DNA of 32,000 nt from Nitrosopumilus sp. (GCA_963662625.1 OY759726.1:1507446-1539445); one strand, 5' to 3'; positions 12,008 to 28,705 are shown, counted from the first letter of the stretch. Translations and numbers: made by a program. The notes: generated from the letters alone by a model not told the origin.

Positions 12008-12027
12008 CGTTGCCGCGTACCGGCGGC

Positions 12028-12711
12028 GTGGACCGCCTGCACCTTGCGCTCTTGATCGTGCTGGCCGGCTGCGCCACGACGGCCGCGTCCCTCGCCCAGG
12101 GAGACCCGTACGTGCCGCCGTGGGTCAGGGACGCCGCCCTGTGGTGGGGCCAGGGGCTCGTCAGCGACTCGGAGTTCCTAGGCCTGGTGCAGTTCCTGGT
12201 GGACAGGGACATGATCACGGTGCCACCCGGCGGGCCGCAGGTCCGGGAACTGCAAGGCGAGGTGGACAGGCTGAAGGCCTCCAACGCGGCTGGGCTCCGG
12301 GACGCCTATGACAGGGGGTATGCCGACGGGCTGGCCGCGGCCCCGCCAGACCCGGGGGTCGTGCACGGCACGGTCACCAGAAACATCGACGGCAACACCA
12401 TCGAGATATCCGGGCAGAAGATACGGCTCCCGTTCGTAGACGTCGAGGACTCCGGGAACGCGAGCATGCCCCACGCAAAGTACGCGAGGGAGCTGTGCCC
12501 CGTGGGCGCAAAGGCGCACTATGACGTCGACGACGACAAGCCGGTCGGCAAGTACGGGAGGACCATCGCGATGGTGTGGTGCGGGGACCACGCCAAGCCG
12601 CTTGACCAGCTCATGGTGGAGTCCGGCCTGGGGTGGATCAGCAAGTACTGGTGCGAGAGATCGGAGTTCCAAAGCCTGGACTGGGTCGACGGCTGCCGCG
12701 CGGGCAGGTGA
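12028..12711 (+). CDS. Secreted or lipid-anchored staphylococcal-nuclease (SNase/thermonuclease)-like nuclease
   Basis: Starting at GTG 12028 the protein begins with a signal-like 'DRLHLALLIVLAGCATTAASLAQ'. Next comes 'WWGQGLVSDSEFLGLVQFLVDRDMITV'. The SNase core follows: 'VTRNIDGNTIEISGQKIRLPFVDVED', 'GKYGRTIAMVWCG', 'LMVESGLGWI'. The ORF-track start at 11698 adds an implausible Pro/Arg-rich extension. Confidence 0.65.
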   Translation: MDRLHLALLIVLAGCATTAASLAQGDPYVPPWVRDAALWWGQGLVSDSEFLGLVQFLVDRDMITVPPGGPQVRELQGEVDRLKASNAAGLRDAYDRGYADGLAAAPPDPGVVHGTVTRNIDGNTIEISGQKIRLPFVDVEDSGNASMPHAKYARELCPVGAKAHYDVDDDKPVGKYGRTIAMVWCGDHAKPLDQLMVESGLGWISKYWCERSEFQSLDWVDGCRAGR

Positions 12712-12742
12712 CGGGCTTGCATTCCTGCCCTTCTTCGGCACC

Positions 12743-12755
12743 GGGGGGGGGGGGG
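12743..12755. repeat. G13 homopolymer
   Basis: 13 consecutive G, 32 nt downstream of the nuclease stop codon. Confidence 0.95.
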
Positions 12756-13374
12756 CGGCCGGCAGCGGCCATGTGTCAGCAGGCAAAATTGAGGCCGGTT
12801 TTCCGATCTATTCCTGCGAATTTCCGGCGTTATCGCACTATAATGTCGATTTAAACCTTATAGCATTACGAACAAAACGTGCGAAAACATATAGAATTCC
12901 CGCACGCCAACCTGTGAAGGCCAAGGTGGGGGTTCCTTGCCGCCCATCCTTGTCACGCCTGTGGGCGCAGCTGCGACCCGGAGTCCTACCGGGGCCGCTC
13001 TCCCAAAACGCCCCGCGCGTGACGCCCCGGCACCGCACAGCATGGAGTCCCGGGCCCCGCGTGTCGGGGGATGGCGCGCAAGCGCGCCTGCTGCCCGCGC
13101 CCCGCACGTTCCCGGCGGGCCAGCCAAGACCCGCCGCGCGGCGCCCTTCGGGCATGCCTTTTTGGACGCCGACAACGCGGGCGGCGCAATTCCTACGAAT
13201 GGGAGCTCAGGCCGATGCAGTCCGGGTCCATCTCCTCGCAGCCGTCGAGCGAGGGCCACCTGCAATATTTTCCAAGGCCGCGCCGCCCTGCCCAATCCGC
13301 GCCGTCTGCATGCCTACTATGTTTTGCCATGATAGGGCAAGTTTCCACCGTGCCGATAAATACATTCCCTGGAC

Positions 13375-13580
13375 GCCCGTCTTCCCTGAAGTGCCTCACG
13401 GATACGTCGGGGGCAGGGGTTCCGGCGGCACATATCGGCCACGCTGGCCCCCTGGATGAACGCCTGCAGCACCACGCGCACCTTCTCGTCCGTGCTCCGT
13501 CGTGCCCTCCCTTGCCCCCATCGCTAAAGCGCGCAGCGGAGATCTGCCTCCTAGCGGGATCCGCACCGCATCTCATGCTG
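13375..13580 (-). pseudogene. IS3-family remnant (copy 2, inverted): degenerate 5' end and orfA fragment
   Basis: The reverse complement aligns by eye with 9350-9560. Examples: '..cccgctag(aa)ggagg..ctttaRcgatgggRggcaag..' and 'ggagcacggacgagaaggYRcgcRtggtgctgcagRcgttca'. It translates to 'STDEKVRVVLQAFIQGASVADMCRR' and then loses frame. Confidence 0.55.
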
Positions 13581-13657
13581 AACAAACCCACGACGCTATG
13601 CCTCTAGGATGCCGACATGATTTTTTAAGGGCGGCGCCACACGACCGGTGCCGCCCC

Positions 13658-14074
13658 ATGGTTCCAGACGTCTTCTCGAAGGAAAAAAGATCCGAGGTGA
13701 TGCGGGGCATAAAGGGCAAGGGCACCAAGCTCGAGCTGGAGACGGCCCGAATGCTGCGCCGCGCCAAGATCAAGTACAGGTCGCATCCGAAGATCTACGG
13801 ATCCCCGGACTTTTTGGTGGATGGGAGGCTTCTGCTCTTCTGCGACGGCTCGTTCTGGCACGGCAGGAATTGGAAGGTGCTGAGGGCGCGGCTAGCCGCC
13901 GGCAACGATCCCGGCTATTGGGTCAGGCACATCGAAACCAACAGGAAACGCGACAGGAAGGTCAACCGGATCCTGGCAGAACGGGGGTACCAGGTGCTCC
14001 GGCTCTGGGATACGGACCTGCAGAAGCGACCCGAGAAGTGCGTGGAGAAGATCAAAAAAGCGCTGCGTTCCTGA
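13658..14074 (+). CDS. vsr: Very-short-patch repair (Vsr) endonuclease, copy 2
   Basis: 'VFSKEKRSEVMRGIKGKGTKLE', 'GSPDFLV', 'LLLFCDGSFWHG', 'NRKRDRKV', 'GYQVLRLWDTDL'. The ATG at 13658 is internal to track ORF 13502..14074, whose first 52 codons look non-coding. Confidence 0.85.
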   Translation: MVPDVFSKEKRSEVMRGIKGKGTKLELETARMLRRAKIKYRSHPKIYGSPDFLVDGRLLLFCDGSFWHGRNWKVLRARLAAGNDPGYWVRHIETNRKRDRKVNRILAERGYQVLRLWDTDLQKRPEKCVEKIKKALRS

Positions 14075-14443
14075 ACGGCGAGCAATGCTGATTTTTGACC
14101 GTGGAGCCTGGAATGGTGATCATCGAAAACCTCGCCCCGGGTGTAACGGTACAGAAATTTGCACAATGCCCAGCTTGATCGGCTGCGCCCTGAAATGCTC
14201 TGAAACTGCACGCTTTACCTCCCCCGGCGCCTCGCAGTGCATGGGAGTGGCCGGTTCGTGCCTTGCCCAATTTCGTACCGCCACCGCCGTGGTGAACTCC
14301 GATGTGGCAGTAGGCATGTGCGGCATGTCGATTTCGTGTGTTCCTTGGTATGCTTATAACACGCAGCCTGGCGATCAACAAGCTTTTCTGCTGTGCTACC
14401 CTTTATAGGGGGGTTCTCTGCGAGCGCCATTCTAGCACCCTAC

Positions 14444-14451
14444 TAAAATAT
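14444..14451 (+). promoter_or_regulatory. TATA-like box for the winged-helix gene at the left edge of the low-GC island
   Basis: TAAAATAT is centred about 21-27 nt upstream of the ATGs at 14468 and 14474. Confidence 0.4.
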
Positions 14452-14467
14452 CATATTGGAGAGTAAA

Positions 14468-15442
14468 ATGCATATGAAAAAGGAAACCATGGATATGTCT
14501 GACGCTGAACGAGGGATATCGGATATTGCCTCATCCGAAGGCGATTTATCTGATTTCACAGCAATCTGCAGGTTGATTTGTAATAATCGCGCAATCTCAA
14601 AAGACAGACTTTTCAAAATCATCAAGAATTCCATTATAAACAAATCAGACGCCGTGATTGAGCGAAAATTAAACATTATGTGCAAATTAGACCTGTTAGA
14701 TTTGGCCAACCAAAAATTTGTACTCCGCGCTAATGGTAAAATATTGGTTGAAATAAGCAACAAACAATCTGTTTTTTCAGAAAAAATAGAAAAGGCATTT
14801 TATTTTATAATATTATTCAGTTCGAAAGCAAGACTGCAACTCACCTCGCTCCTTCAATCTATAAACGAACAAAATGGAGACGATAAAAGGGAAAACATTG
14901 CAAGATATTTTAAAGCAAATATAGTCCAGGAGATATGGAATAAAAAAACAATCGAAAAGAATCTTACCGCTTTAGAAACAACACAAAGATTGCCAAGCAT
15001 GCTTAACAATAAATTTTCTTGCATGGAAAAATGGTTAGAGTTTATTGATCTAATAGAAATAAGAAAAAATGGCCTGCACGCAAATTTGACTTCGGGGCTG
15101 ATTAGCTCGCTGCTAAACCCAGAAAACAAGAAAAACATATTTGGCGAAGCCGCAACAAAGTATTACACCGAATCCAAAGAATTCCGCATTAAGCAGCACT
15201 ATCGAGATTTGTGTACGTATTTTCTTGAGGGCCATGGTAAATTCCTCACCCCTGCCGGAATCAGTGACGCCGAAGCAGTAGCAAAATTCGTGTGCTTGCA
15301 ATTACTCAAATCAAACATAATCTTGGAAGAGAACGGTTTTTTCAAACTGACCAAGAAATTAAAAAAAGACAAAATCCTTCGCTCAGTAATGATGGGCAGG
15401 GACGGCACGCCTAAGAATTTCGGCGTGGATTACTATACCTGA
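14468..15442 (+). CDS. Hypothetical protein with an N-terminal winged-helix-like DNA-binding region
   Basis: Low-GC ORF. 'ISKDRLFKIIKNSIINKSDAVIERKLNIMCKLDLLDLANQKFVLRANGKILVE' has a wHTH-like pattern. The track start is TTG 14456, but ATG 14468 or 14474 fits the TATA spacing better. Its 3' end overlaps the convergent ATPase gene by 32 nt. Confidence 0.5.
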   Translation: MHMKKETMDMSDAERGISDIASSEGDLSDFTAICRLICNNRAISKDRLFKIIKNSIINKSDAVIERKLNIMCKLDLLDLANQKFVLRANGKILVEISNKQSVFSEKIEKAFYFIILFSSKARLQLTSLLQSINEQNGDDKRENIARYFKANIVQEIWNKKTIEKNLTALETTQRLPSMLNNKFSCMEKWLEFIDLIEIRKNGLHANLTSGLISSLLNPENKKNIFGEAATKYYTESKEFRIKQHYRDLCTYFLEGHGKFLTPAGISDAEAVAKFVCLQLLKSNIILEENGFFKLTKKLKKDKILRSVMMGRDGTPKNFGVDYYT

Positions 15443-16526
15443 GAATGTTTTTGTTCCTAGCGACAAATTCCGAATTAATATGATCGAGATCTTTTTCAGC
15501 CGCCTCCCGCACCAGCCGTCCACAGTTGGGGAGAAGAAACCCCGGATAGTGGTATTCGGGGCCCATCAGCCCGAATAATCCGTCTAAGGCATCATCACAA
15601 AAGGGAAGCAGTTTGTCTCTCTGCGTGTCTGATTCCCCCAAATAAAGACTGTGGTGAACACGCAAAAACTCTGAAACATGCTCAGCGCCAAGACTGTCAA
15701 GCGGCACCAAGTAATCAAATCTTCTTGAGAGCTGCTCGGAAAACCCGATGTCATACCACTCGTCTTCTTTCTCAGCTGTAAATGATGCGATTAGCGCAAA
15801 ATTTTCTGAAAAATCGTCCAGGAGGGCTCTTAAACTGTCGCCTATGGCGTTGCTAATTCTGATTGGAGTGTTTTCTAATTCGTCAATGACCAGTACTACC
15901 GGCCCAAAATTTTTGCAAAGGTGGGCGATTAGCTCCTTTAGCATCGTTAGTCTTTTGTAATCGCCGTCTAAGGCATAAGTAATGTCCAATTTGTCAAGCT
16001 CTGAGACTGAAAGGCGCTCGCCGAACAACCATTTTTTTGCAAGTTCGGGTTCCCTCAAATTAGTGCTAATCATATAGAGGGCTTTTGCCAATTCGGTGTT
16101 TGGAATTAACTTCTCCCAATTCGCGGTAGAGCCGTTACCATATTTTGCCTTAATAAAATCTGCTATATTTTTAAGGTTGTTTTTCATGAAATATGAAATG
16201 GCTTCCCTATACATTACTGAAAAAGATGGTTCTACTGCAGGGATCAGCGTGTAGATAAAAATGATGTTCTGGGAACCGTGCGAGCGTCTGACTAGCTCCT
16301 TGCTGATGATTTTCGTAAGCCAGGTTTTGCCGCTGCCTGTCTGGCCAAAAATTCTCATTCCCACGCGAGCCCCCCCCGAAACATCCTCCAAAAACTGATC
16401 CAATTTTTTCCTTGCGTCCGCCAAGTCCGGCCTATCCCACTCGAGAAATTTTTCATCAATCTTGTAAGGGTTGGTTGATTCGTAGGGATTTTGAACAAAA
16501 TGGTACTTTTCAAAATATCTGGACAT
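15411..16526 (-). CDS. P-loop AAA-type ATPase (ORC/Cdc6- or AAA_22-like), last gene of the island operon
   Basis: Walker A 'IFGQTGSGKTWLT' and Walker B 'PVVLVIDELENT'. ATG start, 33 nt after the PLD gene stop. Confidence 0.7.
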   Translation of the reverse strand: MSRYFEKYHFVQNPYESTNPYKIDEKFLEWDRPDLADARKKLDQFLEDVSGGARVGMRIFGQTGSGKTWLTKIISKELVRRSHGSQNIIFIYTLIPAVEPSFSVMYREAISYFMKNNLKNIADFIKAKYGNGSTANWEKLIPNTELAKALYMISTNLREPELAKKWLFGERLSVSELDKLDITYALDGDYKRLTMLKELIAHLCKNFGPVVLVIDELENTPIRISNAIGDSLRALLDDFSENFALIASFTAEKEDEWYDIGFSEQLSRRFDYLVPLDSLGAEHVSEFLRVHHSLYLGESDTQRDKLLPFCDDALDGLFGLMGPEYHYPGFLLPNCGRLVREAAEKDLDHINSEFVARNKNILRYSNPRRNS

Positions 16527-16559
16527 GATTTTACTGATCTCGTATTTTGTACCCTTGTC

Positions 16560-17030
16560 TTATACTTTTCCTTGTATTTCGCTAATGTATTTCTGGGCAT
16601 TTGAGATGAGATCGCACCGCTCGTTTTCTATGAATATCCCCGCCTCTTTATTTTCGTGAATCGCGGTATTACTAATGTTTAAGCTTGAAACTAAAAGGCT
16701 GTCAGTAGCGCCTGTTAGCAAAACCATCTTTGCGTGTACTGATCTTCTAAACATAATGGTCACTCCTAGGTTTTCAATCAAGTCAGAAACAAATTCCTGC
16801 TCAGTAGGATCATTTTTGAGCGTTCTTTTGTTTATTATGATTATGACCTTTACCTGACTGCGGATCAACTGCTCCAATTTTTTACGAAATGGCACTCCGT
16901 TAATTGTGGCGTTGTGAATGTGCTGGCTAACGATTTTAAGTTGCTTCAGGCCCCTCCTTGCGGTTATCATTTGGTTTAGGCGAAATTCTAGGGAATGGCC
17001 GGAAACAAATTCTATCACCATGCATCTCAC
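16560..17030 (-). CDS. PLD-family (single HKD) nuclease, Nuc/NucT-like
   Basis: One HKD-type motif 'SVHAKMVLLTGATDSLLVSSLNISNTAIHENKEAGIFIE'. At 156 aa it is the size of dimeric Nuc-type endonucleases. An ATG at 17021 preceded by GGGTGA is a likely alternative to the GTG at 17030. Confidence 0.7.
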   Translation of the reverse strand: MRCMVIEFVSGHSLEFRLNQMITARRGLKQLKIVSQHIHNATINGVPFRKKLEQLIRSQVKVIIIINKRTLKNDPTEQEFVSDLIENLGVTIMFRRSVHAKMVLLTGATDSLLVSSLNISNTAIHENKEAGIFIENERCDLISNAQKYISEIQGKV

Positions 17031-17053
17031 CCTGTATTTTTTATCCCACGATC

Positions 17054-18082
17054 TTACTGCCTCATGTTTTTTAAGGATTTAAACAGGCTTGCAAAATTCG
17101 TTTTTCCCATGATTCTTTCAACGTATTCGTCGTAGCGGTTCTCGTGAATTAGCTTTCTTGCCTTCTTTAGCTCCTGCTGGTGAGTCCAAGCGTTGTGAAT
17201 CGCCCTGGCGTAAAAATCATCCTCCAGCCCCTTCATACCATGGCGCCTGCACATGGGGCACCTGCAGTTTTCCAGCTTTTTCCCCTCTTCTTTAGAAAGC
17301 CGCGGGTATAGTTTTTTTCTTGCCACCTTTGAAACCCACCTGTCGCCCATCCCGGGCATCTGGATTGCGCCAAACGCCGCCTTTGTCCTCCAGGCAGAAC
17401 TGTCAAGGGAGTCTGCGCCAGCATAGTACATCAAGTGCATCGTGAGCGTGCCGCCTGTGCCAAAAACGTGCAGTTTTGCCCTAGGAATTTGCTTTCGAAC
17501 CTCCAAGATCACCTTCATTACGTTGAGGATCCCGCCCACCCCCTTGACGTTATACATGGCAGGAACCAGGCTGCCAATGCCGTAAATTGGGAACCTGTCG
17601 ATTTTTTTCAGCCTTTTCACATAATCCCGAATTTCTCCTGCGTCATAACCATGAATAACCGGCACCAGAACGGGATTTTTTGTAACTTTGTTTTTTAGCA
17701 TGATCCTTGTATTTTGTAGCGTTTTTGATTTCCGCCTTTCGTTTTCTTCTTTAGGTAGGGTGGGAAACAGGGGATGGTCCAAAACCACGCCAAAATTTGG
17801 TTTAGCCCTTTCGTAGAAACCAATAATTTCTTCTGCAGAAACATCCATGTGTTTTCTTTTCATGAATAAAAACCCGCCAGAATCCATCATGATCGGACCA
17901 CGAAATCCCAAAAAGCCATGAATTTTTTCCTCTTGCGCTGTTTTGAATGCGTGTGGGTGCTGCATAAAGTCATGCGCATTCATTAAAACACCACCCACTC
18001 TGAAATAATTCCAAGGCGCGCTCTTTTTATCTGCGACCATTTGGCTAAACCACAGCATCGGGTATTCTATTTTGTGTTTCAT
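17054..18082 (-). CDS. tRNA-guanine transglycosylase superfamily protein (DpdA/ArcTGT-like base-exchange enzyme)
   Basis: 'IMMDSGGFLF' (cf. the TGT catalytic DSGGFQ block), 'IYGIGSLVP', 'LHVFGTGGTLTMHLMYYAGADSLDSSAW', and a zinc site 'CRCPMCRRH..H' (CxCxxC..H). There is no PUA or C-terminal tRNA-binding extension (342 aa). The ATG overlaps the upstream gene's stop (ATGA). Confidence 0.8.
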   Translation of the reverse strand: MKHKIEYPMLWFSQMVADKKSAPWNYFRVGGVLMNAHDFMQHPHAFKTAQEEKIHGFLGFRGPIMMDSGGFLFMKRKHMDVSAEEIIGFYERAKPNFGVVLDHPLFPTLPKEENERRKSKTLQNTRIMLKNKVTKNPVLVPVIHGYDAGEIRDYVKRLKKIDRFPIYGIGSLVPAMYNVKGVGGILNVMKVILEVRKQIPRAKLHVFGTGGTLTMHLMYYAGADSLDSSAWRTKAAFGAIQMPGMGDRWVSKVARKKLYPRLSKEEGKKLENCRCPMCRRHGMKGLEDDFYARAIHNAWTHQQELKKARKLIHENRYDEYVERIMGKTNFASLFKSLKNMRQ

Positions 18083-18813
18083 GTCGTCTTTATCTGCCTA
18101 AGAAGCGATTTGAGCACCTTTGGGTGGGCCACACCGTACATGTCCCATGCAAATGTACCGCGCTCGTTGACCAGGTTTTTAATTTGATTTTTTGTTGGTA
18201 ATATTTCTATGTCTAAATGATATCTCCGAGATGCTAATTCCAACATTCTCCTATGAGTATGATCGTCTTTTTGATCCAAAGCAGAAGAGTACGTTCTCAC
18301 ACACGCGATTATTTTTTTGTATTCTTGTCCTACTCTTTTTAGTGTCTTTCCAACATTGTCAGAAATAATCTCAATGCTTCTATCCAAGTATTCTTTATCG
18401 TACTCTTGCTTGTATCGACGGCACCACCATTCAAAAAGCCCTGGGCAATCATACCATTCGAACCCAGAAAAATACTGGTCTGGTACTAACCCGAAAGGCT
18501 CTGAAATAGTCATCACCTGAATTTGCTCTCTTTTTCCATTAAGCCTATCTAGATATTGGTACAGCTGTTGGTATGAGCGTGATCTGTTGTATGGCTTAAC
18601 TGTAGAGCATGGATAAATCAGCAAAACGTCTTTTCTTTCTGGGACATACGTTTTGGCCATGAAATTATGCCATTTTTTGATATCCGGGTTGGACGCTAGT
18701 CCTTTGTAGACCTCTTCTGGCGAATAGAAGCACAGGGACTTCTTAATTTTGACACCTTTGCCAACTCTGGAAGAAACTGTTCGGTATAGTTCTAACTTTG
18801 ACATTTCCACCAC
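18079..18813 (-). CDS. DUF5591 / ArcS C1-domain-like protein
   Basis: 'IYPCSTVKPYNRSRSY' matches the published archaeosine synthase signature PC-x3-KPY-x2-S-x2-H, except that the final His is Tyr. It is translationally coupled to the TGT-like gene. An ATG at 18804 is an alternative to the GTG at 18813. Confidence 0.65.
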   Translation of the reverse strand: MVEMSKLELYRTVSSRVGKGVKIKKSLCFYSPEEVYKGLASNPDIKKWHNFMAKTYVPERKDVLLIYPCSTVKPYNRSRSYQQLYQYLDRLNGKREQIQVMTISEPFGLVPDQYFSGFEWYDCPGLFEWWCRRYKQEYDKEYLDRSIEIISDNVGKTLKRVGQEYKKIIACVRTYSSALDQKDDHTHRRMLELASRRYHLDIEILPTKNQIKNLVNERGTFAWDMYGVAHPKVLKSLLRQIKTT

Positions 18814-18834
18814 GGTTCAATGTGTACGGGGGTT

Positions 18835-21800
18835 CTAGCCATGATCTTCCACCTCGTCCGAATTCAAGGCAATGCCTAACTTGACAAAGCCTTTCTCATA
18901 CAATATTTGAACAGATTTTGTAACGGCAGGATCAAATAAATTATTGCCAACTTTGTTTAGTCCCGGTTCTAGCTTTCCCGGATCCACGTAATCCTTTCCA
19001 GATGATACGTCCGAAACGAGTTGTAATAAACCGGCAGATCCTCTGTCGATATCTAATTCTTGGATAATTTTTTTCATGAAAACATCTCTCCGCCTATTTA
19101 ATTCATTGACCATTTTAATCCATGTCATTTTATTCATCCTTTGTAAATGGTCTTTTAATTTACTTGAAAATTTTTCGAAATCCATTCTTGATTCTATCAA
19201 GACAACTTGCTTTGATTCAGGTAAATTTTTTGAACAGATATTTACAAAATTAACGAGTGTTTTTGTTTTCGCTTCGACAGCTTCGATAAATTTTTTAATA
19301 ATTTCATGCAACGCTATATTGATCTGCTCTATTTGCTCACTCAAATCCTTCATGTTAGAATTAATCTCTGTCACGCATTTAACAAATATCACAATTTCTG
19401 ATAAAGACGTTGGCAGTTCTAAATATTCTTTATTGGCAGAATTCAAAGATTTTTTCATATCATTAATTTTCTTTTGGATTGCCACAGTGTTGATCGTTGA
19501 GTCTGACACATCTTCAGAACCCACTATAAAGTCACTTAAATCCTCTAAACATTTTTTACATTCCTCATAATGCTTAAGGAAAGTGCATTCATGCTGATCC
19601 ACTTCTTTTATTTTCTCTAATATTTCGCCCCTGCGTTGATTAAAAGCTGCTAGTTTTTGGCTAACAGTAGAAAAATACTCTTCAATTTGTTTTAAATCCT
19701 TTATTTTTGTGGTTTTTGGAAGTGCCGGTGGTTTGATTTGGGTAGCTGACTTGTGTAGGCCGCTGGAAATTTTATGTGCACTCGGAAAAACAAAAGTTGC
19801 GGTTGCAGCCTTAATTTCTCGGTAGGATTCCTTGATACTTTGTGCAAGGCTATTGGTTTTGTCAGTTGTGCGCTTCATCGCGTCAAGTTCAGCATCAAAA
19901 CATTCTACAGCCTTTTTTAGATTATGATAGGGTAAGCTAAAGTAATATGCATCGTCAGCACTTTTCTCAAAATAAAAGGCGGATTTTTTATGATCTTTTT
20001 TAGAGTCTTTCATCCCTATAGATTGAGTTTCTTCTGTGACGAGTCTTCGTTCGTAAGTTTTTTCATATTCGCTCTGAACTAAATCGACAAATTTCTTTTG
20101 GATGCTCTCCAAAATAATTTCAGAAGTGATATGTTGTTCTTTATTGGATACTAGCTTGTTAAATGTTAAAATAATTTCATCTATTTGATGTTTATAGCTT
20201 TCAAATTTAGACATGGTATCCTTGAATAATTTGGCTTTTTGGTTATTTGCCTCGGTAATTATTGGACGAACATTTTCTTGATAATAATCGTAAATTGCAA
20301 TTATTAATTTGGAAAGACGAAGCTCTTCGTCACCGTCTGAATCATTTTTTTTATCAAGTAATCCTTGTAAAACATGAATGTAATCTGATTCACTTATTAC
20401 CCTACATTCTCTCATTTTTGTTTGCGAAATAAAGTGACCGTTTGAATTATCTTGAGGATATGATTCATTCATGTATTTTTCAACAGCATTAATTTTTGGT
20501 TGAAATACTGCATCGCCCTTCTTTATTATGGCGTAAGTGTTATTGGTTTTTCTAATTTTTCCCTTCTGGATCAATGTGTTTAGATAATAATTCTGCAATG
20601 CTCCCTCGGCGTTAGACTGGTTTACGAATTCCTGTTCCAGTCCAGCCTGTGAATTTTTATTTTTTCCTAGTAATCGAATAACCCTTTTTTCTACAGGTGT
20701 GTCAACTGACATGATTACGGAGTTAATGTCCTTTAAAAATTGGTTGTTAGTTAATCCATATGCCCAAGATTTCCATTCGTCTTTAGTTTCAATATCTATC
20801 GGGCAAAATGATCCTTTACTACCAAATAACTTGATTGATTTTAATTTTTTATAAAACTCCCATTGCTCATCGATTGGAAAATTGGATGTACTTATAAAAG
20901 AAGAGATCGCTTCTCTGATACTGCTCTTACTGTAATCTCCCAATTCTTTGAGTAACGGAATTATGATTCCGGAAGCTTCCGCCTTTGGAATCCAAAAATT
21001 TTCAATGCGTTGCTTCAGCTTTAATTCATTTATTATTGCAGAAATGCGGGATTTTTCAGTGATGCGATTAATTTGGATTTTTTCCACTTTTGCACGTTTC
21101 CAACAAAGTAACTGCTCGACATTAATTCTGTCTATTGGAATTCGCTGAATCTCACCCACACCCTCCAGTAATTCATGAACGGGTTTTTCCAAATGTGTTT
21201 GGTAGAATAACAAAGTCAGAACTGCAGGAGTGGCATCAACAAGCTTTCTAATTTTATCAATTTTTTCTACAGAAATATTCTCGATGATTCCTTCAATTAT
21301 AATGGGAATTGGATTGTCCCGTTCATTTAACTTTAAAAGAAAATACTCCTCCTGCGGCTCACAATTAATATCTGAAAGTTTTATCGCATCAATTAGTGCG
21401 TACTTGAGATCATGATGAATCTTATCACGGTTTTTCACATCCCCCAAATCCCTTTGGATTTTTCTTCTTAACTCTAGCCGTTTACTTCTGTCTTTAATAA
21501 AATCAAATTTAATTAAGTTTGGAGATGGAAAGACGTTTTCTAGAAGATTTACTGAAACACGGTAAAATCTATTCGAGGTATCGAAATTATTTTTCACGGA
21601 ATGATAGAATTTTCCAGCAATGGTACTATCAATACCTAACAATCTAGATAATTCGTGTGGGTCTTTTGGAATTACAATCTCTTTATCAAAATAATTCTTT
21701 GATAAATTACTGCTTATAACATAGTTTGTAAATGATTCTTTTAATGTAGCGATCAGGATAGAATTATAGTCAACAGTTATGTACTGATTCTTGCCTTGTT

Positions 21801-23109
21801 CGATTTTTGTATAGTTTGATAAAATTGAATCGAAATCCCGCCCTTCTTTCAATTTATAATATACCCCAAAAGCAGAATCAAGTTTGTTTTGGTTTTGAAG
21901 ATTTTCATTAATTTGATTAACCAAATTGCTGATATCTTTTTTAGGAATACTTAATCTTTCAGAAATTTCATCGATGGAAAAGGCCTTGTTTTCTCCTGTT
22001 AGCAATTCAAAGATTTTAATTAATTTTTCCGAATTTCTCCTTGAATTACTTAATGACTTTCTGAAACCATCTAGCATGTTAGCTTCAATTGCGGACGTGG
22101 ATGATCCATAAACGGAAACTTTGACATCATTTAATTCTTTAAACAGCTGTGTGTAATCAATGCAGCATATCGTGGTTTTATCATAAGGGATCGCCTTGCT
22201 CATTAGCTTGTAGAGCAGCTGGATTAATGCCCTGGGGTTTCTTTGAGAAATATTTACAATAGTTTCAAAAATCCCGGCACTAGCAATTGGCAACTTTTCT
22301 AATTTTCCAGCATAGCTAACTTTTACTAGCTCAGATAAAAAGTGGTAGCAATCAAATCTCGAGAGGAGAGGTAATTCAATCAAATTGTAGGCGAGTCTTT
22401 GTTCAGTGCTCCCCATTACTTGAGAAAAATTAGGATCTTCAGTAATCGTATTCCATGCATACGGCGTACACGCAACAAAGATGTGCAACCTTCCCTCGTA
22501 TTTACCTCCTTCAGATAATGATCCAAATTTTTTGTTGATGACTTCTTTAATTCCTGAAATCACATCAGCTTTAATATCCTCATTGTAGAGAATTTCTTCA
22601 AACTCATCTAAAAATAAATACATTTTTTTTTGATTATTTTCAAACAATTCTGCAAGTTTTTCATTCAGATATCTTACTGGATCTTTTATCATATCTTTGT
22701 AAAACAGTCCTTTATCTCCCTCCTGAGAATATAGATCGTCACCCACTGCAGTTAATAATGCTGTTAAAAAATTGGTGGCGGTGTTTGAATGATGCGTATA
22801 GCTTTCATTCCTACGTAATTTCTTTGCCAGTGTACTGGTAGATACCGAATAGCAATAGTGATGTTTTAGAACCGTTGAGATATAGCGATCAAATGCATCA
22901 GTCTTACCTTCCCCCCATTCTGCTTTAATCAGACATATCTGGATGTTCTTATCATTACGAGTTTTTTCAATAAAGCCGTCGATTAAATTCGCGACTGATT
23001 CGCGCCCAGGAATCTTTGCATTTTTAACTCCTTGGAAAGGAACGCCTTTGGGGTCTGGTAGATTTCTGAGATCGAAAACTGGTGCAGTGCTAACCATCCT
23101 AACCCTCAC
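18835..23109 (-). CDS. Very large (1424 aa) P-loop NTPase (KAP / COG1483-BrxC-like N-terminus) with a long uncharacterised helical C-terminal region
   Basis: Deviant Walker A 'CLIKAEWGEGKTDAF' (AxxxxGKT, as in KAP-type NTPases) and Walker B 'KMYLFLDEFEEIL'. The remaining ~1150 aa are K/E/N/I-rich, with long heptad-like stretches near the C-terminus. An ATG at 23097 preceded by GGTGAGG is a likely alternative to the GTG at 23109. Confidence 0.7.
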   Translation of the reverse strand: MRVRMVSTAPVFDLRNLPDPKGVPFQGVKNAKIPGRESVANLIDGFIEKTRNDKNIQICLIKAEWGEGKTDAFDRYISTVLKHHYCYSVSTSTLAKKLRRNESYTHHSNTATNFLTALLTAVGDDLYSQEGDKGLFYKDMIKDPVRYLNEKLAELFENNQKKMYLFLDEFEEILYNEDIKADVISGIKEVINKKFGSLSEGGKYEGRLHIFVACTPYAWNTITEDPNFSQVMGSTEQRLAYNLIELPLLSRFDCYHFLSELVKVSYAGKLEKLPIASAGIFETIVNISQRNPRALIQLLYKLMSKAIPYDKTTICCIDYTQLFKELNDVKVSVYGSSTSAIEANMLDGFRKSLSNSRRNSEKLIKIFELLTGENKAFSIDEISERLSIPKKDISNLVNQINENLQNQNKLDSAFGVYYKLKEGRDFDSILSNYTKIEQGKNQYITVDYNSILIATLKESFTNYVISSNLSKNYFDKEIVIPKDPHELSRLLGIDSTIAGKFYHSVKNNFDTSNRFYRVSVNLLENVFPSPNLIKFDFIKDRSKRLELRRKIQRDLGDVKNRDKIHHDLKYALIDAIKLSDINCEPQEEYFLLKLNERDNPIPIIIEGIIENISVEKIDKIRKLVDATPAVLTLLFYQTHLEKPVHELLEGVGEIQRIPIDRINVEQLLCWKRAKVEKIQINRITEKSRISAIINELKLKQRIENFWIPKAEASGIIIPLLKELGDYSKSSIREAISSFISTSNFPIDEQWEFYKKLKSIKLFGSKGSFCPIDIETKDEWKSWAYGLTNNQFLKDINSVIMSVDTPVEKRVIRLLGKNKNSQAGLEQEFVNQSNAEGALQNYYLNTLIQKGKIRKTNNTYAIIKKGDAVFQPKINAVEKYMNESYPQDNSNGHFISQTKMRECRVISESDYIHVLQGLLDKKNDSDGDEELRLSKLIIAIYDYYQENVRPIITEANNQKAKLFKDTMSKFESYKHQIDEIILTFNKLVSNKEQHITSEIILESIQKKFVDLVQSEYEKTYERRLVTEETQSIGMKDSKKDHKKSAFYFEKSADDAYYFSLPYHNLKKAVECFDAELDAMKRTTDKTNSLAQSIKESYREIKAATATFVFPSAHKISSGLHKSATQIKPPALPKTTKIKDLKQIEEYFSTVSQKLAAFNQRRGEILEKIKEVDQHECTFLKHYEECKKCLEDLSDFIVGSEDVSDSTINTVAIQKKINDMKKSLNSANKEYLELPTSLSEIVIFVKCVTEINSNMKDLSEQIEQINIALHEIIKKFIEAVEAKTKTLVNFVNICSKNLPESKQVVLIESRMDFEKFSSKLKDHLQRMNKMTWIKMVNELNRRRDVFMKKIIQELDIDRGSAGLLQLVSDVSSGKDYVDPGKLEPGLNKVGNNLFDPAVTKSVQILYEKGFVKLGIALNSDEVEDHG

Positions 23110-24775
23110 CTAGTAAACCCTTCACTACATCAGTAGTTCCAGCAGTGTGTGGGATCACCCTGTCATTTGAGCTCACTTTAATCGTTAATGGAATGGGTAA
23201 TTTTTTGGACATTTGCCCCGTAACAATTACTTGGCCTTGAGAAAGATTCGTTAATTTGTTTTCTCGTGATTTAGGCAAACCTCCTGTCACTTTTCTCACA
23301 AAACTAATATCACCAAATGCGATTCTATGGATAAAGAATGTATTTACCATGGAAACGACCACTTCATCTAAAAATGCAGGTCTTTGAGAGATGAGGCATA
23401 ACCCAATTCCAAATTTTCTTCCTTGTGTTGCAATAACGTGTAATTTTCTTCTAGCTAATCCTGCACCTACCTTGTACACGGAATCATTGGGTATATAGTT
23501 ATGTGCTTCCTCAATTGCAAAAATAATGTATTTCTTTGCTTTATCAGTTTTATAGCGGGTGAAGGTTTTATAAATTAAAGATGCGAAATACCCCACTACT
23601 GCTTGCTTTAACTCTGGGGAAATTCCCGGCGCGCCATCAGATGAAAAATCTATTATTGCAATTTCGCGGTTATTTGTAAGTTTGTCAAGGAAATTACGAG
23701 TAATTGTGGGATCCTCATCGAAAAGTTTTGATGTTAAAGCTTCGCGTCTAAATTTTTCTAATGCTCTTCGTATTGCACCTGCAACAGAACTATGAATTTC
23801 TGGATTTTTACCAGTTGAGAAATCGTTTAATTTAGTAGTTATGCGTTCGAATTTGGCTTCATCAGTGAATAACTCACTATAACGGAATTCTGGAGGTTCT
23901 TGGTTTGGATTTCCGATATCATTTTGTAGTTCCATATATTCAATCACTCTTTCCAGTCCCGTAATTTGAAGTTCGGGCAACTCCCCACCCGTATAAAACT
24001 GCATTATGATTTCCGCTAATTCAGTTCGTGATAGTGTACCTAGATCAATTCTTAGTTCAGCGACGTTTGCATCTCCTCGTTGTGTGGATACAGGGAAAAC
24101 ATATCGTGTAATATTTTTACACGCGCCATCTAAACTATCTCCATTAACTGCATAATCAGTATAGTCGCCATTAGAATCTATTATCAGCATGGGCATAGCT
24201 ACTAGTCGGGTTGGTCCTGCAGGGACATTCACAAATTTTTCAATCAGTGCACCCACGTTGTAGGATTTCCCACTACCAGTAGTCCCAAAAACTGCCATAT
24301 GCATCGGTATTTCTTCTATACTCAGCGGAATTGGGGCCTTTTGATATCCAAGTAGTGTACCATACCACACGTATCCTGGTTCGTTTCTTCCAATCCCAAA
24401 AATCGTTTCAGGATCAGACACGTCAACTTCAAAAACAGGGTCGCCTGGCAGCGGAGGATGGTTAAGCAGGGCCAGATGTGGAATTTCGCCTAAAAGCTCC
24501 AGTGTACAGGTTACATATTGCCGGGCTACGTTTGAAGGGATACTGAAATCCTTTCTTCTGGATTCTGACCACGCATCCCCTTTGGTGTAGAAATCATTGT
24601 GAGGTTCTACGCTTTCTACATGAGCAAGAATGTCTTTGCCTCTAGATTCAATTAAGACTAATTTGCTCTCCGTTATTTTATGCTCAAAGTTTTCAAATAA
24701 CTGAAATTTTGCTTCAGAAGAAGAACCGGCAGTGAGGATGACTCCTATTTTATCCCCTTTTGGGTTTCTGGCCAT
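23099..24775 (-). CDS. herA: HerA-like (DUF87, FtsK/HerA-class) ATPase
   Basis: N-terminal barrel-like region, Walker A 'VFGTTGSGKSYN', Walker B 'YIIFAIEEAHNYIP', and 'ATQGRKFGIGLCLISQRPAFLD'. The ATG at 24775 overlaps the NurA-like stop (TGATG). The track's TTG at 24778 is an alternative start. Confidence 0.85.
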   Translation of the reverse strand: MARNPKGDKIGVILTAGSSSEAKFQLFENFEHKITESKLVLIESRGKDILAHVESVEPHNDFYTKGDAWSESRRKDFSIPSNVARQYVTCTLELLGEIPHLALLNHPPLPGDPVFEVDVSDPETIFGIGRNEPGYVWYGTLLGYQKAPIPLSIEEIPMHMAVFGTTGSGKSYNVGALIEKFVNVPAGPTRLVAMPMLIIDSNGDYTDYAVNGDSLDGACKNITRYVFPVSTQRGDANVAELRIDLGTLSRTELAEIIMQFYTGGELPELQITGLERVIEYMELQNDIGNPNQEPPEFRYSELFTDEAKFERITTKLNDFSTGKNPEIHSSVAGAIRRALEKFRREALTSKLFDEDPTITRNFLDKLTNNREIAIIDFSSDGAPGISPELKQAVVGYFASLIYKTFTRYKTDKAKKYIIFAIEEAHNYIPNDSVYKVGAGLARRKLHVIATQGRKFGIGLCLISQRPAFLDEVVVSMVNTFFIHRIAFGDISFVRKVTGGLPKSRENKLTNLSQGQVIVTGQMSKKLPIPLTIKVSSNDRVIPHTAGTTDVVKGLLGEG

Positions 24776-25944
24776 CAATGAACATCTCCCATCATTTTCA
24801 TTTGAATTATGTTTTCCACATCTTCATTACTCTTAGAACCGGTAATAAATTCCCTAAATAATATGTCTGCCGCTCCTTGTCCAATATTGCACTTTTCATG
24901 TGCTAAAATCACAGGAATAGGGATGTGTCTTCCGGGTGCAGCCCACCTAACGATAGATTTGATTGCTTCGATTACTAAATCATTTTTAACAAATTTTTTG
25001 CTTGGAGACAACGCAATATCTACACGAATAGGGCTGGAGACATAGCCATTTGCCATCAGAAATGTTAAAACATCCACACCATTGTTCTGATATTCATTTG
25101 CGGCTTTTTTACCAATTTCGCCAGTTTTTCCTTTAGAGTTAATCTCTGAAAGTAAAATTGGTTCAGTGTAAGCAAGACAGTCTTTATCATTTTTTAGATA
25201 CTCTGTAAAAATATGTACTGCTAAATTTTTATCTGAAAGCATATTTTCAAATTCAACTGATTCGCTTAAAGGAAAAAATGATTTGTAATGGTTGGAGAAT
25301 AATGTTCCGCTAATTCTTTTTACGATTCCAATTAACTGTGCTCCTCTCGAAAAACCCTGTTTGATCGCAAATGTCCTTCCTTCAACGTATTGTTTTTGAT
25401 TTTCGAACGGAGGATCAATAATTGGACCATCAAGAAAAATAATTCCATCGCTTTCTTTTTTCCTAGACATCGCCGTAACCTTTAACGCTTCTGTTTCCAT
25501 ATCCATCATGAATTTTTCCGCCGCAGCGCCTGCGCCTTTCTCGTCAATTTGATTTATTGTTCGAATTGCTGGAGTTACTAGAACATCAACGTCAGAATCA
25601 TAACCTTGGGGATACCTTATTCTTGCGACGCTGTAAAAAATCATCCACCCGCCATCTGGTCTGGGGTATTTTTGCAGACTTCCATCTACGGCATCTGTAA
25701 GCGTTTTGGCATATTCAGAAAGATCTGTTTTTGTCAAATCCATTTTATGAATAATGCTTTTCGAAACCATTAGTGAGAGAGCTTTCTTAGCACTTTTGCG
25801 ATATTCTTTGGCAGATTGCTTCATTGCCTCGGATTGTTTTGATGTTTCCTCAACAAATTTTACCATGGCTTCTGCAGGAAGCTTGTTGAAGCTAAGCATG
25901 TTGAGTTCTCTACGAAGCTGTTCTTCTTTGTATAAATCAGGCAT
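24775..25944 (-). CDS. nurA: NurA-like nuclease, first gene of the island operon
   Basis: NurA motifs occur in order: 'TDAVDGS', 'MDMETEAL', 'IIFLDGPIIDPP', 'LIGIVKRISGT', 'PVILAHEKCNI'. Confidence 0.7.
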   Translation of the reverse strand: MPDLYKEEQLRRELNMLSFNKLPAEAMVKFVEETSKQSEAMKQSAKEYRKSAKKALSLMVSKSIIHKMDLTKTDLSEYAKTLTDAVDGSLQKYPRPDGGWMIFYSVARIRYPQGYDSDVDVLVTPAIRTINQIDEKGAGAAAEKFMMDMETEALKVTAMSRKKESDGIIFLDGPIIDPPFENQKQYVEGRTFAIKQGFSRGAQLIGIVKRISGTLFSNHYKSFFPLSESVEFENMLSDKNLAVHIFTEYLKNDKDCLAYTEPILLSEINSKGKTGEIGKKAANEYQNNGVDVLTFLMANGYVSSPIRVDIALSPSKKFVKNDLVIEAIKSIVRWAAPGRHIPIPVILAHEKCNIGQGAADILFREFITGSKSNEDVENIIQMKMMGDVH

Positions 25945-25967
25945 AAATATAGGATGATCTTGCTATG

Positions 25968-25975
25968 TTTATAAT
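25968..25975 (-). promoter_or_regulatory. TATA box of the island operon (leaderless spacing)
   Basis: The minus strand reads ATTATAAA, centred about 27 nt upstream of the ATG at 25944. Confidence 0.5.
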
Positions 25976-26352
25976 ATTTTAGTGTGGATAATGCGGCAGT
26001 CTGTACACATGATAACCAACCAGACGTATCTGCATCAACGGATCGACTCTTTGCATGTGGGCCCAGTGCCCTTGAGCTTGAGTGGGGCAACCGAGCTGGT
26101 TGTGTATTGGGCCTAGTGCCTTAACAGGCGTGTGTATATTCCTGCCCGTCAGACATTTGAAAGGATGTGATGGGAAAGGATTAGAAAGACAAGCACAGGG
26201 ATAGACATAGGGGAGGAAAACTGCGACATGTGCATGGTGGATATGCCGGGACGATCCTCGAGGGAGGGCATTACCCCAACACCCGGGACGGAGCGTGGAA
26301 GTTTGTGAGAGTGATGGCGCGCAGGTGCCTGGGGGCGGCTCCCGGAGCATAG

Positions 26353-26383: not shown

Positions 26384-28441
26384 ATGCGCCTGGCAAGCTT
26401 TCATATAAAGAAGTACCGCTCCATCGAGGACTCTGGTGAAATACGAGTTGATGAAAACGTCACGACTTTTGTAGGGATCAATGAAAGCGGCAAGACAAAC
26501 GTCCTGCGAGCACTAAAGAGGCTAAACCCTATAGAGGACACCTGCTTCAATGATCTTGCCGAACAGCCCACATGGCACTTTGAAAGCATGGATCCGGAGG
26601 AAGTCTTCGTCACCGCAACTTTCAAACTAAGCGGTAAAGAAAGAGACAGGGTTAGTGAAATCAGCGGCAGGCTGGTGCAACTAGACGAAGTCAAGTTCAG
26701 CAGGAGAAAGAATATGAATCTTATTTGTGATCTTGAGGCCGAGCAAGAGGCGATCCACTTTGATGCGTTTGACAGGAACTACCTGCAACCCATACTCGCC
26801 ATCCTTAACTCTGTTAATCCGAACGCCTTTGAGCGTGGTCAGGGGCAGAAGGACATCATCATAGGAATATTCGAAGACATAGTACATGGTTACGAAGGGA
26901 AGTCAAACGTGAGGCAGCCACAAACCCTTGCTTCAATAAAGCAACGCATGAAGTATTTCACACACACGTTATCTGTAATTTCGGGCGACCACGCAAAAAA
27001 AGCCTCGATTAATTCTGCGATTGAAAGGATATACTCCGAAGTGACGGAGGATCCTACAGAAAAAATAAAGGAATACCTTGTCAAAGCTCTGCCCCGGTTC
27101 ATTTATTTTGCAAACGTTGCCATAATAGACAGCAGGATTCACCTGCCGACGTTTGTCAAAAAACTTGATGCGAGTGGGCTGAGCGAAGACGAAAAAACTG
27201 CAAAGACTCTACTGGATCTGGCAGGTTTGGACGCAAAAGACCTGCACAAGCTAAGCACGGATGGAAATGACCGCGCAGAGGTTCGAGAAAACCATGACAG
27301 GTTGGATAGGTTGCTGAGTGGCGCATCAACGAAGGTCTCCAACGAGATTGACAGTATCTGGGATCAAAACGACCACGACATAGAGTTCAGGGTTCAAGGA
27401 GAGAATTTCAGGGCATGGGTGATCGACAGGAAAGACAAGACAAAACTCCAACTGGAGGAGGGAAGCAGGGGATATCGGTGGTATTTTTCCTTCTACGTGA
27501 TTTTCAGCGCAGAATCAAAGGGGAGACACAAAGACGCGATAATTTTGCTTGACGAGCCGGCGCTGTACTTGCACCCGAAGGCGCAGTCGGACCTTCTCAA
27601 AAACGTGCTTCCAAAGATGGCGGAAAAAAACCAGATCCTATACACCACGCACTCGCCTTTCATGGTGAACCTGAGTGATCCGGCCAGCATCCACACTGTC
27701 ACGCTAAAGGACATCGAACTGGAAGGCCGGGCCGCTAGGAAAGTCACGCAGATATCTGACAAAGTATGGGACGACGACCGCATGGCACTGTTCCCATTAC
27801 AATCTGCGCTTCATTACACAATGGCACAATCTATGTTCATCGGCAAAAAAAACCTCATAGTGGAAGGCGTCACAGATCTTTGGATGCTGGGCGCTGCTTC
27901 GGCCCTCTTGGAATCTGCCGGCAAAACTCATTTGAAGCAGGATTTCGTGCTTGTCCCGGCCGGGGGAGCAACCAAGTCGGTATTCTTTGCGAGCACGTAC
28001 AAGTCACAGGGATTGGACGTCGCGGTCCTGCTTGACGCCGATCCAGAGGGGGAAACTGCACATGACTTGCTTGTTAAGAACAAGGTACTCCGAGGTCAGA
28101 AGGTCGTCCTGATCAACGAGATGCTGGGCAAGAATGGCAACATGTCGATTGAAGACGTGTTTCCGGAGGATTACTACCTGAAATTCGTAGAATCAGCCTA
28201 TCAAAATGAACTCAATGAAAAGAAAATCGAAAGAATCACGCTTACGTCGCAAGATCCGATGGTGCTGAGGAGAATAGAAGAATTCTTCAGGGAGAAAGGC
28301 CTGCCAGAATTCCACAAGGGTAGGCCAGCGCGTGCTATACTGGAAGAGTTTGGTCAAGCCGATACGAATGCCCTTCCTGAGGTTCTTATCTGCAGGCTTG
28401 AGAAACTGTTTGCGGGGATTAACAAACTGATGGGCGGTTGA
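26384..28441 (+). CDS. OLD-family ATP-dependent endonuclease (ABC-type ATPase fused to Toprim)
   Basis: N-terminus 'FHIKKYRSIEDSGEI..TTFVGINESGKTNVLRAL' (Walker A), 'GSRGYRWYFSF' (signature-like), 'AIILLDEPALYLHP' (Walker B), 'ILYTTHSPFMV' (H-loop). C-terminal Toprim 'NLIVEGVTDLWML' and 'AVLLDADPEGE'. Confidence 0.85.
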   Translation: MRLASFHIKKYRSIEDSGEIRVDENVTTFVGINESGKTNVLRALKRLNPIEDTCFNDLAEQPTWHFESMDPEEVFVTATFKLSGKERDRVSEISGRLVQLDEVKFSRRKNMNLICDLEAEQEAIHFDAFDRNYLQPILAILNSVNPNAFERGQGQKDIIIGIFEDIVHGYEGKSNVRQPQTLASIKQRMKYFTHTLSVISGDHAKKASINSAIERIYSEVTEDPTEKIKEYLVKALPRFIYFANVAIIDSRIHLPTFVKKLDASGLSEDEKTAKTLLDLAGLDAKDLHKLSTDGNDRAEVRENHDRLDRLLSGASTKVSNEIDSIWDQNDHDIEFRVQGENFRAWVIDRKDKTKLQLEEGSRGYRWYFSFYVIFSAESKGRHKDAIILLDEPALYLHPKAQSDLLKNVLPKMAEKNQILYTTHSPFMVNLSDPASIHTVTLKDIELEGRAARKVTQISDKVWDDDRMALFPLQSALHYTMAQSMFIGKKNLIVEGVTDLWMLGAASALLESAGKTHLKQDFVLVPAGGATKSVFFASTYKSQGLDVAVLLDADPEGETAHDLLVKNKVLRGQKVVLINEMLGKNGNMSIEDVFPEDYYLKFVESAYQNELNEKKIERITLTSQDPMVLRRIEEFFREKGLPEFHKGRPARAILEEFGQADTNALPEVLICRLEKLFAGINKLMGG

Positions 28442-28682: not shown

Positions 28683-28705
28683 GCCCGCCGGGCCGAACCC
28701 ACAGC

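Follow-up and report, generated by a model that had tools for sequence, protein, structure and literature searches.

Within a 32,000-nucleotide stretch of DNA from a Nitrosopumilus sp. (GCA_963662625.1 OY759726.1:1507446-1539445, hereafter the window), a low-GC island carries a guanine transglycosylase of the TGT superfamily and a stand-alone DUF5591 protein (the catalytic core of ArcS), together with a NurA-family nuclease, a HerA-class ATPase, a giant AAA+ protein, a PLD-family nuclease, a small AAA+ ATPase and a convergent gene. We consider that these genes probably (at roughly 60%) encode a system of modular build, akin to restriction-modification, in which DNA is marked by a 7-deazaguanine, following a logic like that of the bacterial Dpd system but with different parts. 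7-Deazaguanines in DNA have so far been known only from bacteria with Dpd islands and from viruses. If the proposal is true, archaeal cells also mark their genomes by base exchange, using enzymes recruited from the archaeosine tRNA pathway, and the mark would be read by NurA-HerA and an Orc/Cdc6-like giant, machinery hitherto tied to DNA repair and replication. It would also point to a widespread archaeal defence family in which one and the same marking pair goes with exchangeable nuclease modules, as well as to new DNA-modifying enzymes.

A transglycosylase pair beside DNA enzymes

From species-representative genomes, metagenomes and exact look-ups we obtained 114 loci with 85 distinct TGT sequences, 71 of which share 40% identity or more with the window protein. 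DUF5591 lies directly beside TGT in 53 of the 57 loci where this position is visible. Where 8.5 kb or more can be seen on one side, NurA, HerA and the giant gene are all present in 31 of 36 loci, and where both flanks are visible in 15 of 18, usually in the order NurA-HerA-giant-DUF5591-TGT and with the giant gene adjoining HerA in every locus that has this core. The carriers come from nine or more lineages of archaea and from a single bacterium, among them Thermococcus argininiproducens (complete genome, CP080572), Ca. Methanodesulfokora (Korarchaeota), several Bathyarchaeia, two Thermoplasmata, metagenome-assembled genomes of Archaeoglobales, Asgard and Nitrosopumilus (Nitrososphaerota), and one member of the Crocinitomicaceae (Bacteroidota). 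The gene set thus recurs across many archaea, and the condition that the initial annotation named as a refutation, that the seven genes are never co-located in other genomes, is clearly contradicted. All conserved partners of the TGT pair are DNA enzymes. TGT also occurs without DUF5591, in L012 (7498-11705) adjoining a primase-polymerase/D5-helicase gene and QueT in a plasmid- or provirus-like setting, and in L037 (9508-9987) adjoining a nucleoside 2-deoxyribosyltransferase-like gene.

Genes for the supply of preQ0 are linked to the pair in 13 distinct loci (queC in 8, queD in 2, queE in 2 and queT in 5). They include loci among the closest relatives (71-75% TGT identity) with the arrangements QueE-QueC-NurA-HerA-giant-DUF5591-TGT-DUF7669 (L032) and QueD/QueC-NurA-HerA-giant-DUF5591-TGT-DUF7669 (L030). 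The window proteins themselves include no que or folE product, just as the initial annotation had stated. This linkage bears on a quite different use of the same genes, namely base excision, in which the transglycosylase would remove guanine or a viral 7-deazaguanine from invader DNA, leaving NurA-HerA and PLD to degrade the damaged molecule. TGT enzymes do form covalent enzyme-nucleic acid intermediates (some of the solved structures that were matched show them), restriction enzymes that act by base excision are known (PMC10273834), and archaeal viruses carry 7-deazaguanines (PMC10516641). However, the association with preQ0 synthesis or import argues that the enzyme needs a free base to insert, and the conserved nitrile-modifying DUF5591 protein has no role in a scheme of excision only; we regard this explanation as very improbable indeed.

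The position 3' of TGT varies by lineage and is occupied in the window by the PLD gene. In the five closest relatives (L030, L032, L034, L035 and L036) a DUF7669 gene of 84-99 aa lies just downstream of TGT, and in Thermococcus (L001, 11054-11530) TGT is followed by DUF6884, a distant YaaA relative (PF03883/DUF328) with a CxxxK motif (PMC11701544). The dPreQ0 hydrolase DpdC has also been assigned to the YaaA family (PMC12839542).

The transglycosylase of the window belongs to the TGT superfamily, passing the cut-offs of both PF01702 (1.2e-25, 90.8 bits; cut-off 26.3) and TIGR00449 (64.5 bits; cut-off 47.6), with catalytic residues and fold in place. It stays below the equivalog cut-offs for ArcTGT (TIGR00432, 2e-30, 105.8 bits; cut-off 350) and for DpdA (NF041059, 1e-15, 57.4 bits; cut-off 200), and is not orthologous to any named enzyme. 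The label "TGT/DpdA-like" given to it earlier was right about the superfamily, and has to be amended in that the catalytic domain of ArcTGT resembles the protein more closely than any DpdA does (106 vs 57 bits). Compared with solved structures, the family profile matches ArcTGT 1iq8 at 3e-31 (residues 45-334 of 582 aa) and DpdA 7ui4 at 2e-8. Residues D67, D102 and D227 and the zinc site C273/C275/C278/H296 (CxCxxC...H) are invariant in the family; the catalytic D67 and D227 align to D95 and D249 of Pyrococcus horikoshii ArcTGT 1iq8, as does the CxCxxC of the zinc site, D102 is the base-binding aspartate, and the pocket sequence GSLVP matches the preQ0-type GGVVP of ArcTGT and GGMVP of DpdA. 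The predicted model (predicted local-distance difference test score, pLDDT, 88) gives a template-modelling (TM) score of 0.77-0.79 to the ArcTGT catalytic domain, or 0.47 normalised to the target. Viral DpdA models reach at most 0.69, and bacterial DpdA 7ui4 is not among the best 50 PDB fold matches. The C1, C2 and PUA tRNA-binding domains are absent from this protein of 342 aa, compared with 582 aa for ArcTGT. It has 237 relatives in a large protein collection, and 120 of 120 among the matches listed measure 304-369 aa.

The neighbouring DUF5591 protein matches the ArcS model NF040592 only at ArcS positions 275-342 (2.9e-13, 49 bits; cut-off 440) and does not have the full ArcS architecture, i.e., the N-terminal TGT-like, C1, C2 and PUA domains. 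From P68 it reads P-C-x3-K-P-Y-x2-S-x2-Y, with C69, K73, P74 and S78 invariant and the tyrosine of KPY conserved as well, compared with PCX3KPYX2SX2H in the published ArcS motif (PMC5699537). In the main family a tyrosine thus takes the place of the final histidine, which only the short forms of L017 and L018 retain. These short forms (175-186 aa; L017 9412-9939 and L018 16913-17473, from Archaeoglobales and Crocinitomicaceae) have no counterpart to the C-terminal half of the longer proteins.

Among viruses, the closest relatives of the two proteins are encoded side by side in the Sulfolobus viruses STSV1, STSV2 and STSV4, at 28-31% identity, and STSV2 DNA contains dCDG (2'-deoxy-7-carboxy-7-deazaguanine) (PMC10516641). 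DNA rather than tRNA is, we infer, the likely substrate of the window pair, given the missing RNA-binding domains, the DNA enzymes as partners, the STSV homologues and the DUF6884 gene of Thermococcus. Reasoning of this kind also led to the prediction of DpdA, which was later confirmed (PMC5699537). The opposite view, that an ArcTGT-like enzyme and an ArcS core modify tRNA of the host or of a virus, as an additional archaeosine pathway or an infection-triggered effector, with the neighbouring DNA enzymes working independently, draws on ArcTGT being the best match by sequence and fold, on DUF5591 being the ArcS catalytic core and on the que genes, which serve tRNA modification too. We consider it very improbable, as C1, C2 and PUA are missing from both proteins, the operon linkage to NurA, HerA and the giant gene is tight (31/36 loci, with stop and start codons that overlap), the family occurs patchily and on islands, unlike a universal housekeeping enzyme, and the nearest viral homologues come from STSV, of which STSV2 has modified DNA (PMC10516641).

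Separable nuclease modules

The PLD, small AAA+ and convergent genes form a trio whose members always occur together, with PLD directly upstream of AAA, and that is found with the TGT pair at five distinct loci (the window, L014, L087, L002 and L115). Trio and NurA-HerA-giant core are both present in the window, L014 and L087. In the Nitrosopumilus locus L002 the arrangement is QueC-DUF5591-TGT-PLD-AAA-convergent gene, without NurA, HerA or the giant, and L115 has trio and pair with no core in the DNA visible (its contig ends just past DUF5591). The trio is thus a module separate from NurA-HerA-giant. Given that it is found alone with the same pair in other genomes, the window would hold one marking module and two effector modules. 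A further arrangement, in L060 (6922-12548), is ParB-like, DUF7119, a nuclease with a FokI cleavage domain, DUF5591, TGT and a second ParB-like gene, again without NurA, HerA or the giant, which suggests a third effector type along with a DpdB-like partner. One marking pair with interchangeable nuclease modules is a hallmark of restriction-modification, and the "seven-gene operon" of the initial annotation is thus a composite, a shared pair plus separable NurA-HerA-giant and PLD-AAA-convergent modules. The idea of marking and defence put forward there is sustained in part, by synteny, que linkage and defence or mobile neighbours, with DNA substrate, identity of the modified base and protection as predictions; what has to be given up is that the genes are one indivisible system.

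This swapping also bears on an explanation in which the five core genes only install the base, HerA and the Orc/Cdc6-like giant opening or translocating DNA and NurA processing intermediates, so that the mark would keep other restriction systems away from the chromosome or a mobile element, or be epigenetic, without any restriction arm. Bacterial DpdA does require an ATPase partner, the ParB-like DpdB (PMC10164549; PMC12839542), viral DpdA/ArcS pairs are anti-restriction devices (PMC6884629), some loci adjoin integrases or a primase-helicase (L002, L012), and no reader of the mark was identified. Nevertheless, three nuclease families (NurA, PLD and FokI-type) exchanged around one pair follow the pattern of restriction arms and not that of a biosynthetic helper, viruses manage with the pair alone, and the TGT family of the window has no relative in 2.9 million viral contigs. 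A machine for modification only is therefore, in our judgement, unlikely.

Turning to the putative restriction arms, NurA residues D87 (GIDGS), E150 and D172 (IDGP) are invariant among 15 homologues, and an HEKCN motif is conserved, with K351 invariant; we take these to be the NurA catalytic motifs. HerA carries Walker A (GTTGSGKS) and Walker B (IEEAH) motifs and matches PADLOC HerA models at up to 3.8e-35, but it remains far below all NCBIfam HerA equivalog cut-offs (85 vs 800 bits for NF040937; 74 vs 970 for NF040819). The two genes (PF09376 and PF01935) adjoin, the stop codon of NurA overlapping the start codon of HerA.

For the giant protein, no family of Pfam, PADLOC or NCBIfam passed its threshold. 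In an AlphaFold model of residues 5-1200 built from a 22-sequence alignment (pLDDT 85.5), its N-terminal ~400 residues match Orc1/Cdc6 2qby_A in the PDB at 1.2e-5 by Foldseek, with ORC4, RuvB and CED-4 also found; Orc1/Cdc6 and ORC4 are the top matches, at 1e-5 to 1e-3, and the BrxC N-terminus 9zll_B is a weaker one (2.9e-3). The alignment shows no variation in Walker A (WGEGKT) or in Walker B (DE), the AAA+ part is followed in the model by several helix/strand domains resembling DNA-binding ones and by an alpha/beta region, and positions ~950-1390 gave coiled-coil matches only. The protein had been called a KAP/BrxC-like NTPase. The KAP identity is rejected in favour of an Orc/Cdc6-type AAA+ fold, and BrxC is left as a weak structural match, no BrxC_BrxD, DUF499 or PglZ match being found by Pfam or PADLOC (PglZ nowhere in the window). 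The other motif-level assignments (NurA, HerA, DUF5591, TGT, PLD and AAA) agree with the profile searches.

Within the trio, the PLD motif HxK...SxN (HAK...S-x-N) is conserved in five homologues, and the protein falls below the DrmC equivalog cut-off (NF038319, 25 bits; cut-off 133). The small AAA family is rare, with 29 cluster representatives at E<=1e-30 among 1.84 billion proteins. The convergent protein has no Pfam, PADLOC or NCBIfam match; its homologues are 31-65% identical and always convergent with the AAA gene. The convergent orientation noted earlier therefore stands, and the winged helix once assigned to it comes down to a weak, sub-threshold HTH_45 match (4e-4) in one homologue, that of L014. 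The convergent protein is possibly a DNA-binding or specificity subunit. Its N-terminal ~70 residues show a weak whole-sequence match to TALE repeats (3ugm, 2.5e-7), in which no individual stretch reaches significance, and share the conserved motif GISDI(A/T)SxEG; the TALE resemblance may be due to chance.

For the marking and restriction system that we favour, we postulate the following course. The PUA-less TGT would swap guanine in double-stranded DNA for preQ0, taken here from the host archaeosine pathway and in relatives from linked queC/D/E genes or a QueT importer, after which DUF5591 would convert the dPreQ0 nitrile to a derivative (amidine, amide, carboxylate or amino-acid adduct). The giant Orc/Cdc6-type AAA+ protein may bind and scan DNA and sense missing marks, and on unmarked DNA it would load the HerA ring translocase, which would pass the DNA on to NurA for cleavage. 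A second, independent effector would consist of PLD, the small AAA+ ATPase and the putative DNA-binding protein of the convergent gene. The broadest form of this proposal is that many archaea, along with at least one bacterium, place in their own chromosomes a 7-deazaguanine derivative that could be new to cellular DNA (such as dCDG, dG+ or a dPreQ0 amino-acid adduct) by means of an ArcTGT-derived transglycosylase and a free ArcS core, and that a hitherto unknown Orc/Cdc6-HerA-NurA machine or a PLD-AAA module destroys unmarked DNA; this we hold at slightly less than even odds. Archaea would then have their first restriction-modification system based on base exchange, and NurA its first part in defence.

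Several points weigh against a marking and restriction system. NurA-HerA is best known from DNA repair. The TGT is nearer, by sequence and fold, to the tRNA enzyme ArcTGT than to any proven DNA transglycosylase, and the chemistry of DUF5591 is uncertain because the last residue of its ArcS motif is tyrosine and not histidine. No sensor of the modification status was identified, and the blocking of the effector arms by the mark is a prediction. The window has no que genes, and a supply of preQ0 by this host is presumed. The island is foreign DNA in a host of 68% GC and might not be expressed, and the "defence island" evidence from neighbouring genes is descriptive, without a background control.

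Comparison with described systems

The closest parallel is the Dpd system (dpdA-K), in which a PUA-less TGT paralogue that uses the precursor preQ0 also lies beside DNA-metabolism genes (PMC10164549, PMC5699537). In Dpd a second enzyme, DpdC, alters the nitrile, a part that DUF5591 would play here, joined in Thermococcus by DUF6884, and both have ATPase and nuclease genes as a putative restriction arm (PMC10164549, PMC5699537). In contrast, the window has no DpdB (ParB-like), DpdC (DUF328) or DpdD-K helicase/nuclease genes, its putative effectors are NurA, HerA, the Orc/Cdc6-like giant and PLD, its TGT is no DpdA orthologue, and the distribution is almost wholly archaeal. The DpdB class (ParB-like) accompanies the pair only in the variant locus L060, and the DUF328-related DUF6884 only in L001. 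The kind of system is thus known from bacterial Dpd, whereas the parts, architecture and archaeal distribution are new.

Viral pairs of DpdA and ArcS core (STSV1/STSV2, nt-1) share the adjacent TGT-like and DUF5591-only proteins, and the DNA of Vibrio phage nt-1 carries dPreQ0, dG+ and dADG (PMC10516641, PMC6884629). They differ in standing alone and protecting viral DNA from restriction, whereas the pair here is cellular and joined to nuclease and ATPase modules, and in having the opposite gene order.

The combination of Orc/Cdc6, HerA/FtsK and a nuclease is a described defence theme (PMC10853773), and the window shows the same coupling of a HerA-class translocase to an Orc/Cdc6-type AAA+ and a nuclease as these capture systems. 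In BREX-related capture (BRC), reported from only 45 taxa, a TGT homologue has been proposed to mark self DNA (PMC12839542). However, these systems use REase/iREase domains, PglZ, DUF6079, DUF4007, STAND NTPase and GNAT; those of PMC10853773 have no TGT, and BRC has a TGT with otherwise different parts. NurA is not mentioned in PMC10853773 or PMC12839542, and neither DUF5591 nor a 1,400-aa coiled-coil protein belongs to the systems of either. The window differs further from BREX and BRC in that its giant protein has no BrxC_BrxD or DUF499 profile match and that PglZ is absent.

The archaeal NurA-HerA end-resection complex has the same two families, adjacent and translationally coupled. Here, by contrast, they occur on islands and with a patchy distribution, the giant ATPase and the TGT pair being their constant neighbours, without Mre11-Rad50 linkage: systematic neighbour searches of the loci returned no Mre11 or Rad50 families, and in L060, which is without the core, one next-but-one open reading frame (ORF) matched the generic Metallophos phosphoesterase family, which includes Mre11. 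SIR2-HerA and DUF4297-HerA likewise combine a HerA ATPase with an effector enzyme in defence, the effector here being NurA instead. DISARM, through DrmC, provides a precedent for a single-HKD PLD nuclease as an accessory restriction component, but PLD here goes with an AAA+ ATPase of a rare, dedicated family and a convergent gene, and neither DrmA, DrmB nor the DISARM methylase is present. The initial annotation knew of no described system with this gene combination, and none was found in the searchable literature (in which few subscription papers are covered), in PADLOC v2 or in NCBIfam release 20, the last two having no models for NurA, the giant or DUF5591 members.

The island and its surroundings

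All eight ORFs are intact and agree in length with their homologues (Table 1). The tight packing of the seven minus-strand genes is as first described, with overlaps between the NurA stop and the HerA ATG (TGATG at 24775) and between the DUF5591 stop and the TGT start (ATGA at 18079-18082), and with spacers of 21, 23 and 33 nt, from the coordinates. The TATA box reported before the first ATG was also found, as an A/T-rich element that is a candidate archaeal promoter for a near-leaderless operon transcript.

Table 1 Features of the island, in order of transcription of the minus-strand genes
Feature	Position (strand)	Length	Assignment
TATA-like A/T-rich element AAAATATTATAAA, read in the sequence	25968-25980 (-)		About 24-36 nt 5' of the NurA ATG (25944)
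NurA-family nuclease, first operon gene	24775-25944 (-)	389 aa	PF09376 4.4e-10
HerA/FtsK-class hexameric ATPase	23099-24778 (-), ATG 24775	559 aa	DUF87 (PF01935) 3.5e-26
Giant protein	18835-23109 (-), probable ATG 23097	1424 aa	N-terminal Orc/Cdc6-type AAA+, C-terminal coiled coil
Stand-alone DUF5591, ArcS catalytic core	18079-18813 (-)	244 aa	PF17884 2.4e-13
TGT-superfamily guanine transglycosylase	17054-18082 (-)	342 aa	Catalytic domain only, without C1/C2/PUA
Single-HKD PLD-family nuclease	16560-17030 (-)	156 aa	PLDc_2 4.1e-9; PADLOC DrmC 4.9e-9
Small AAA+ ATPase	15411-16526 (-)	371 aa	Weak AAA_22/AAA_16/KAP and DnaC/Orc-like matches
Convergent protein	14456-15442 (+)	328 aa	Third trio member

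The GC content of the island (14440-25980) is 38.2%, and its individual genes range from 34 to 46%; the earlier figure of roughly one third fits the giant gene (34%) and is slightly low for the whole. In the composition profile a trough of 33-46% extends over ~14.0-26.0 kb, the left flank (9190-13400) has 67% and the core genes on the right 68-72%. The ProRS fragment at the right edge of the window is 62-69% identical to the enzymes of Nitrosopumilaceae and Cenarchaeum, which identifies the host as an archaeon of the Nitrosopumilaceae and thus places a low-GC island in an unusually GC-rich thaumarchaeal genome. Most described Nitrosopumilaceae are much lower in GC, and a composition of 68% is hence unusual. 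The ergothioneine genes EgtD (68.7% GC) and EgtB, both over their equivalog cut-offs, adjoin ProRS at 28484-31140. As part of the best explanation we propose that the island was acquired horizontally by this high-GC host.

Such an origin could also mean a silent passenger, i.e., recent low-GC DNA that is unexpressed or without a substrate in this genome. The 30-point GC gap to the host, the insertion sequence (IS) fragments flanking the region and the window's want of que genes agree with that, but eight full-length ORFs with intact motifs and the archaeal TATA-like element speak for a working locus, as does the host, a member of the Nitrosopumilaceae like the donors of the closest loci; we find a silent passenger rather improbable.

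The surrounding region is a mosaic of mobile and defence genes, namely an IS110 transposase, Dcm, HNH and Vsr genes, an IS3-type fragment, a second Vsr and an OLD gene. The neighbours at other loci include integrases, MNT/HEPN (toxin-antitoxin), DNA methylases, DUF499/NsnA, KAP NTPase and Cas10/Csm6 (CRISPR). At 1503-3851 of the window the genes of a C5 cytosine DNA methylase (PF00145, 3.6e-61), an HNH endonuclease and a Vsr mismatch endonuclease follow one another, which looks like a Dcm-type restriction-modification and repair cassette. The second Vsr (13502-14074, 60% GC), to the left of the island, is 43% identical to the first and has a DUF559/MTES_1575 REase-like C-terminus. On the other side lies an intact OLD-family ATPase-TOPRIM gene (26384-28441; AAA_15 1.5e-25; PADLOC Old, AriA and GajA models) with no GajB-like partner; at 48% GC it looks like an acquisition separate from the 38% GC island. 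The island is not bordered by direct repeats of att type. Part of the IS110 transposase gene (60-1142) is repeated in inverted orientation over 87 nt in the spacer that separates NurA from OLD (26247-26333), and an 80-nt inverted repeat (9453-9532/13419-13498) brackets 9.5-13.5 kb, beside the IS3-type HTH_21 ORF. Finally, an unannotated 517-aa ORF (10145-11698) contains a 174-nt tandem duplication (94% identity) at 11317-11664.

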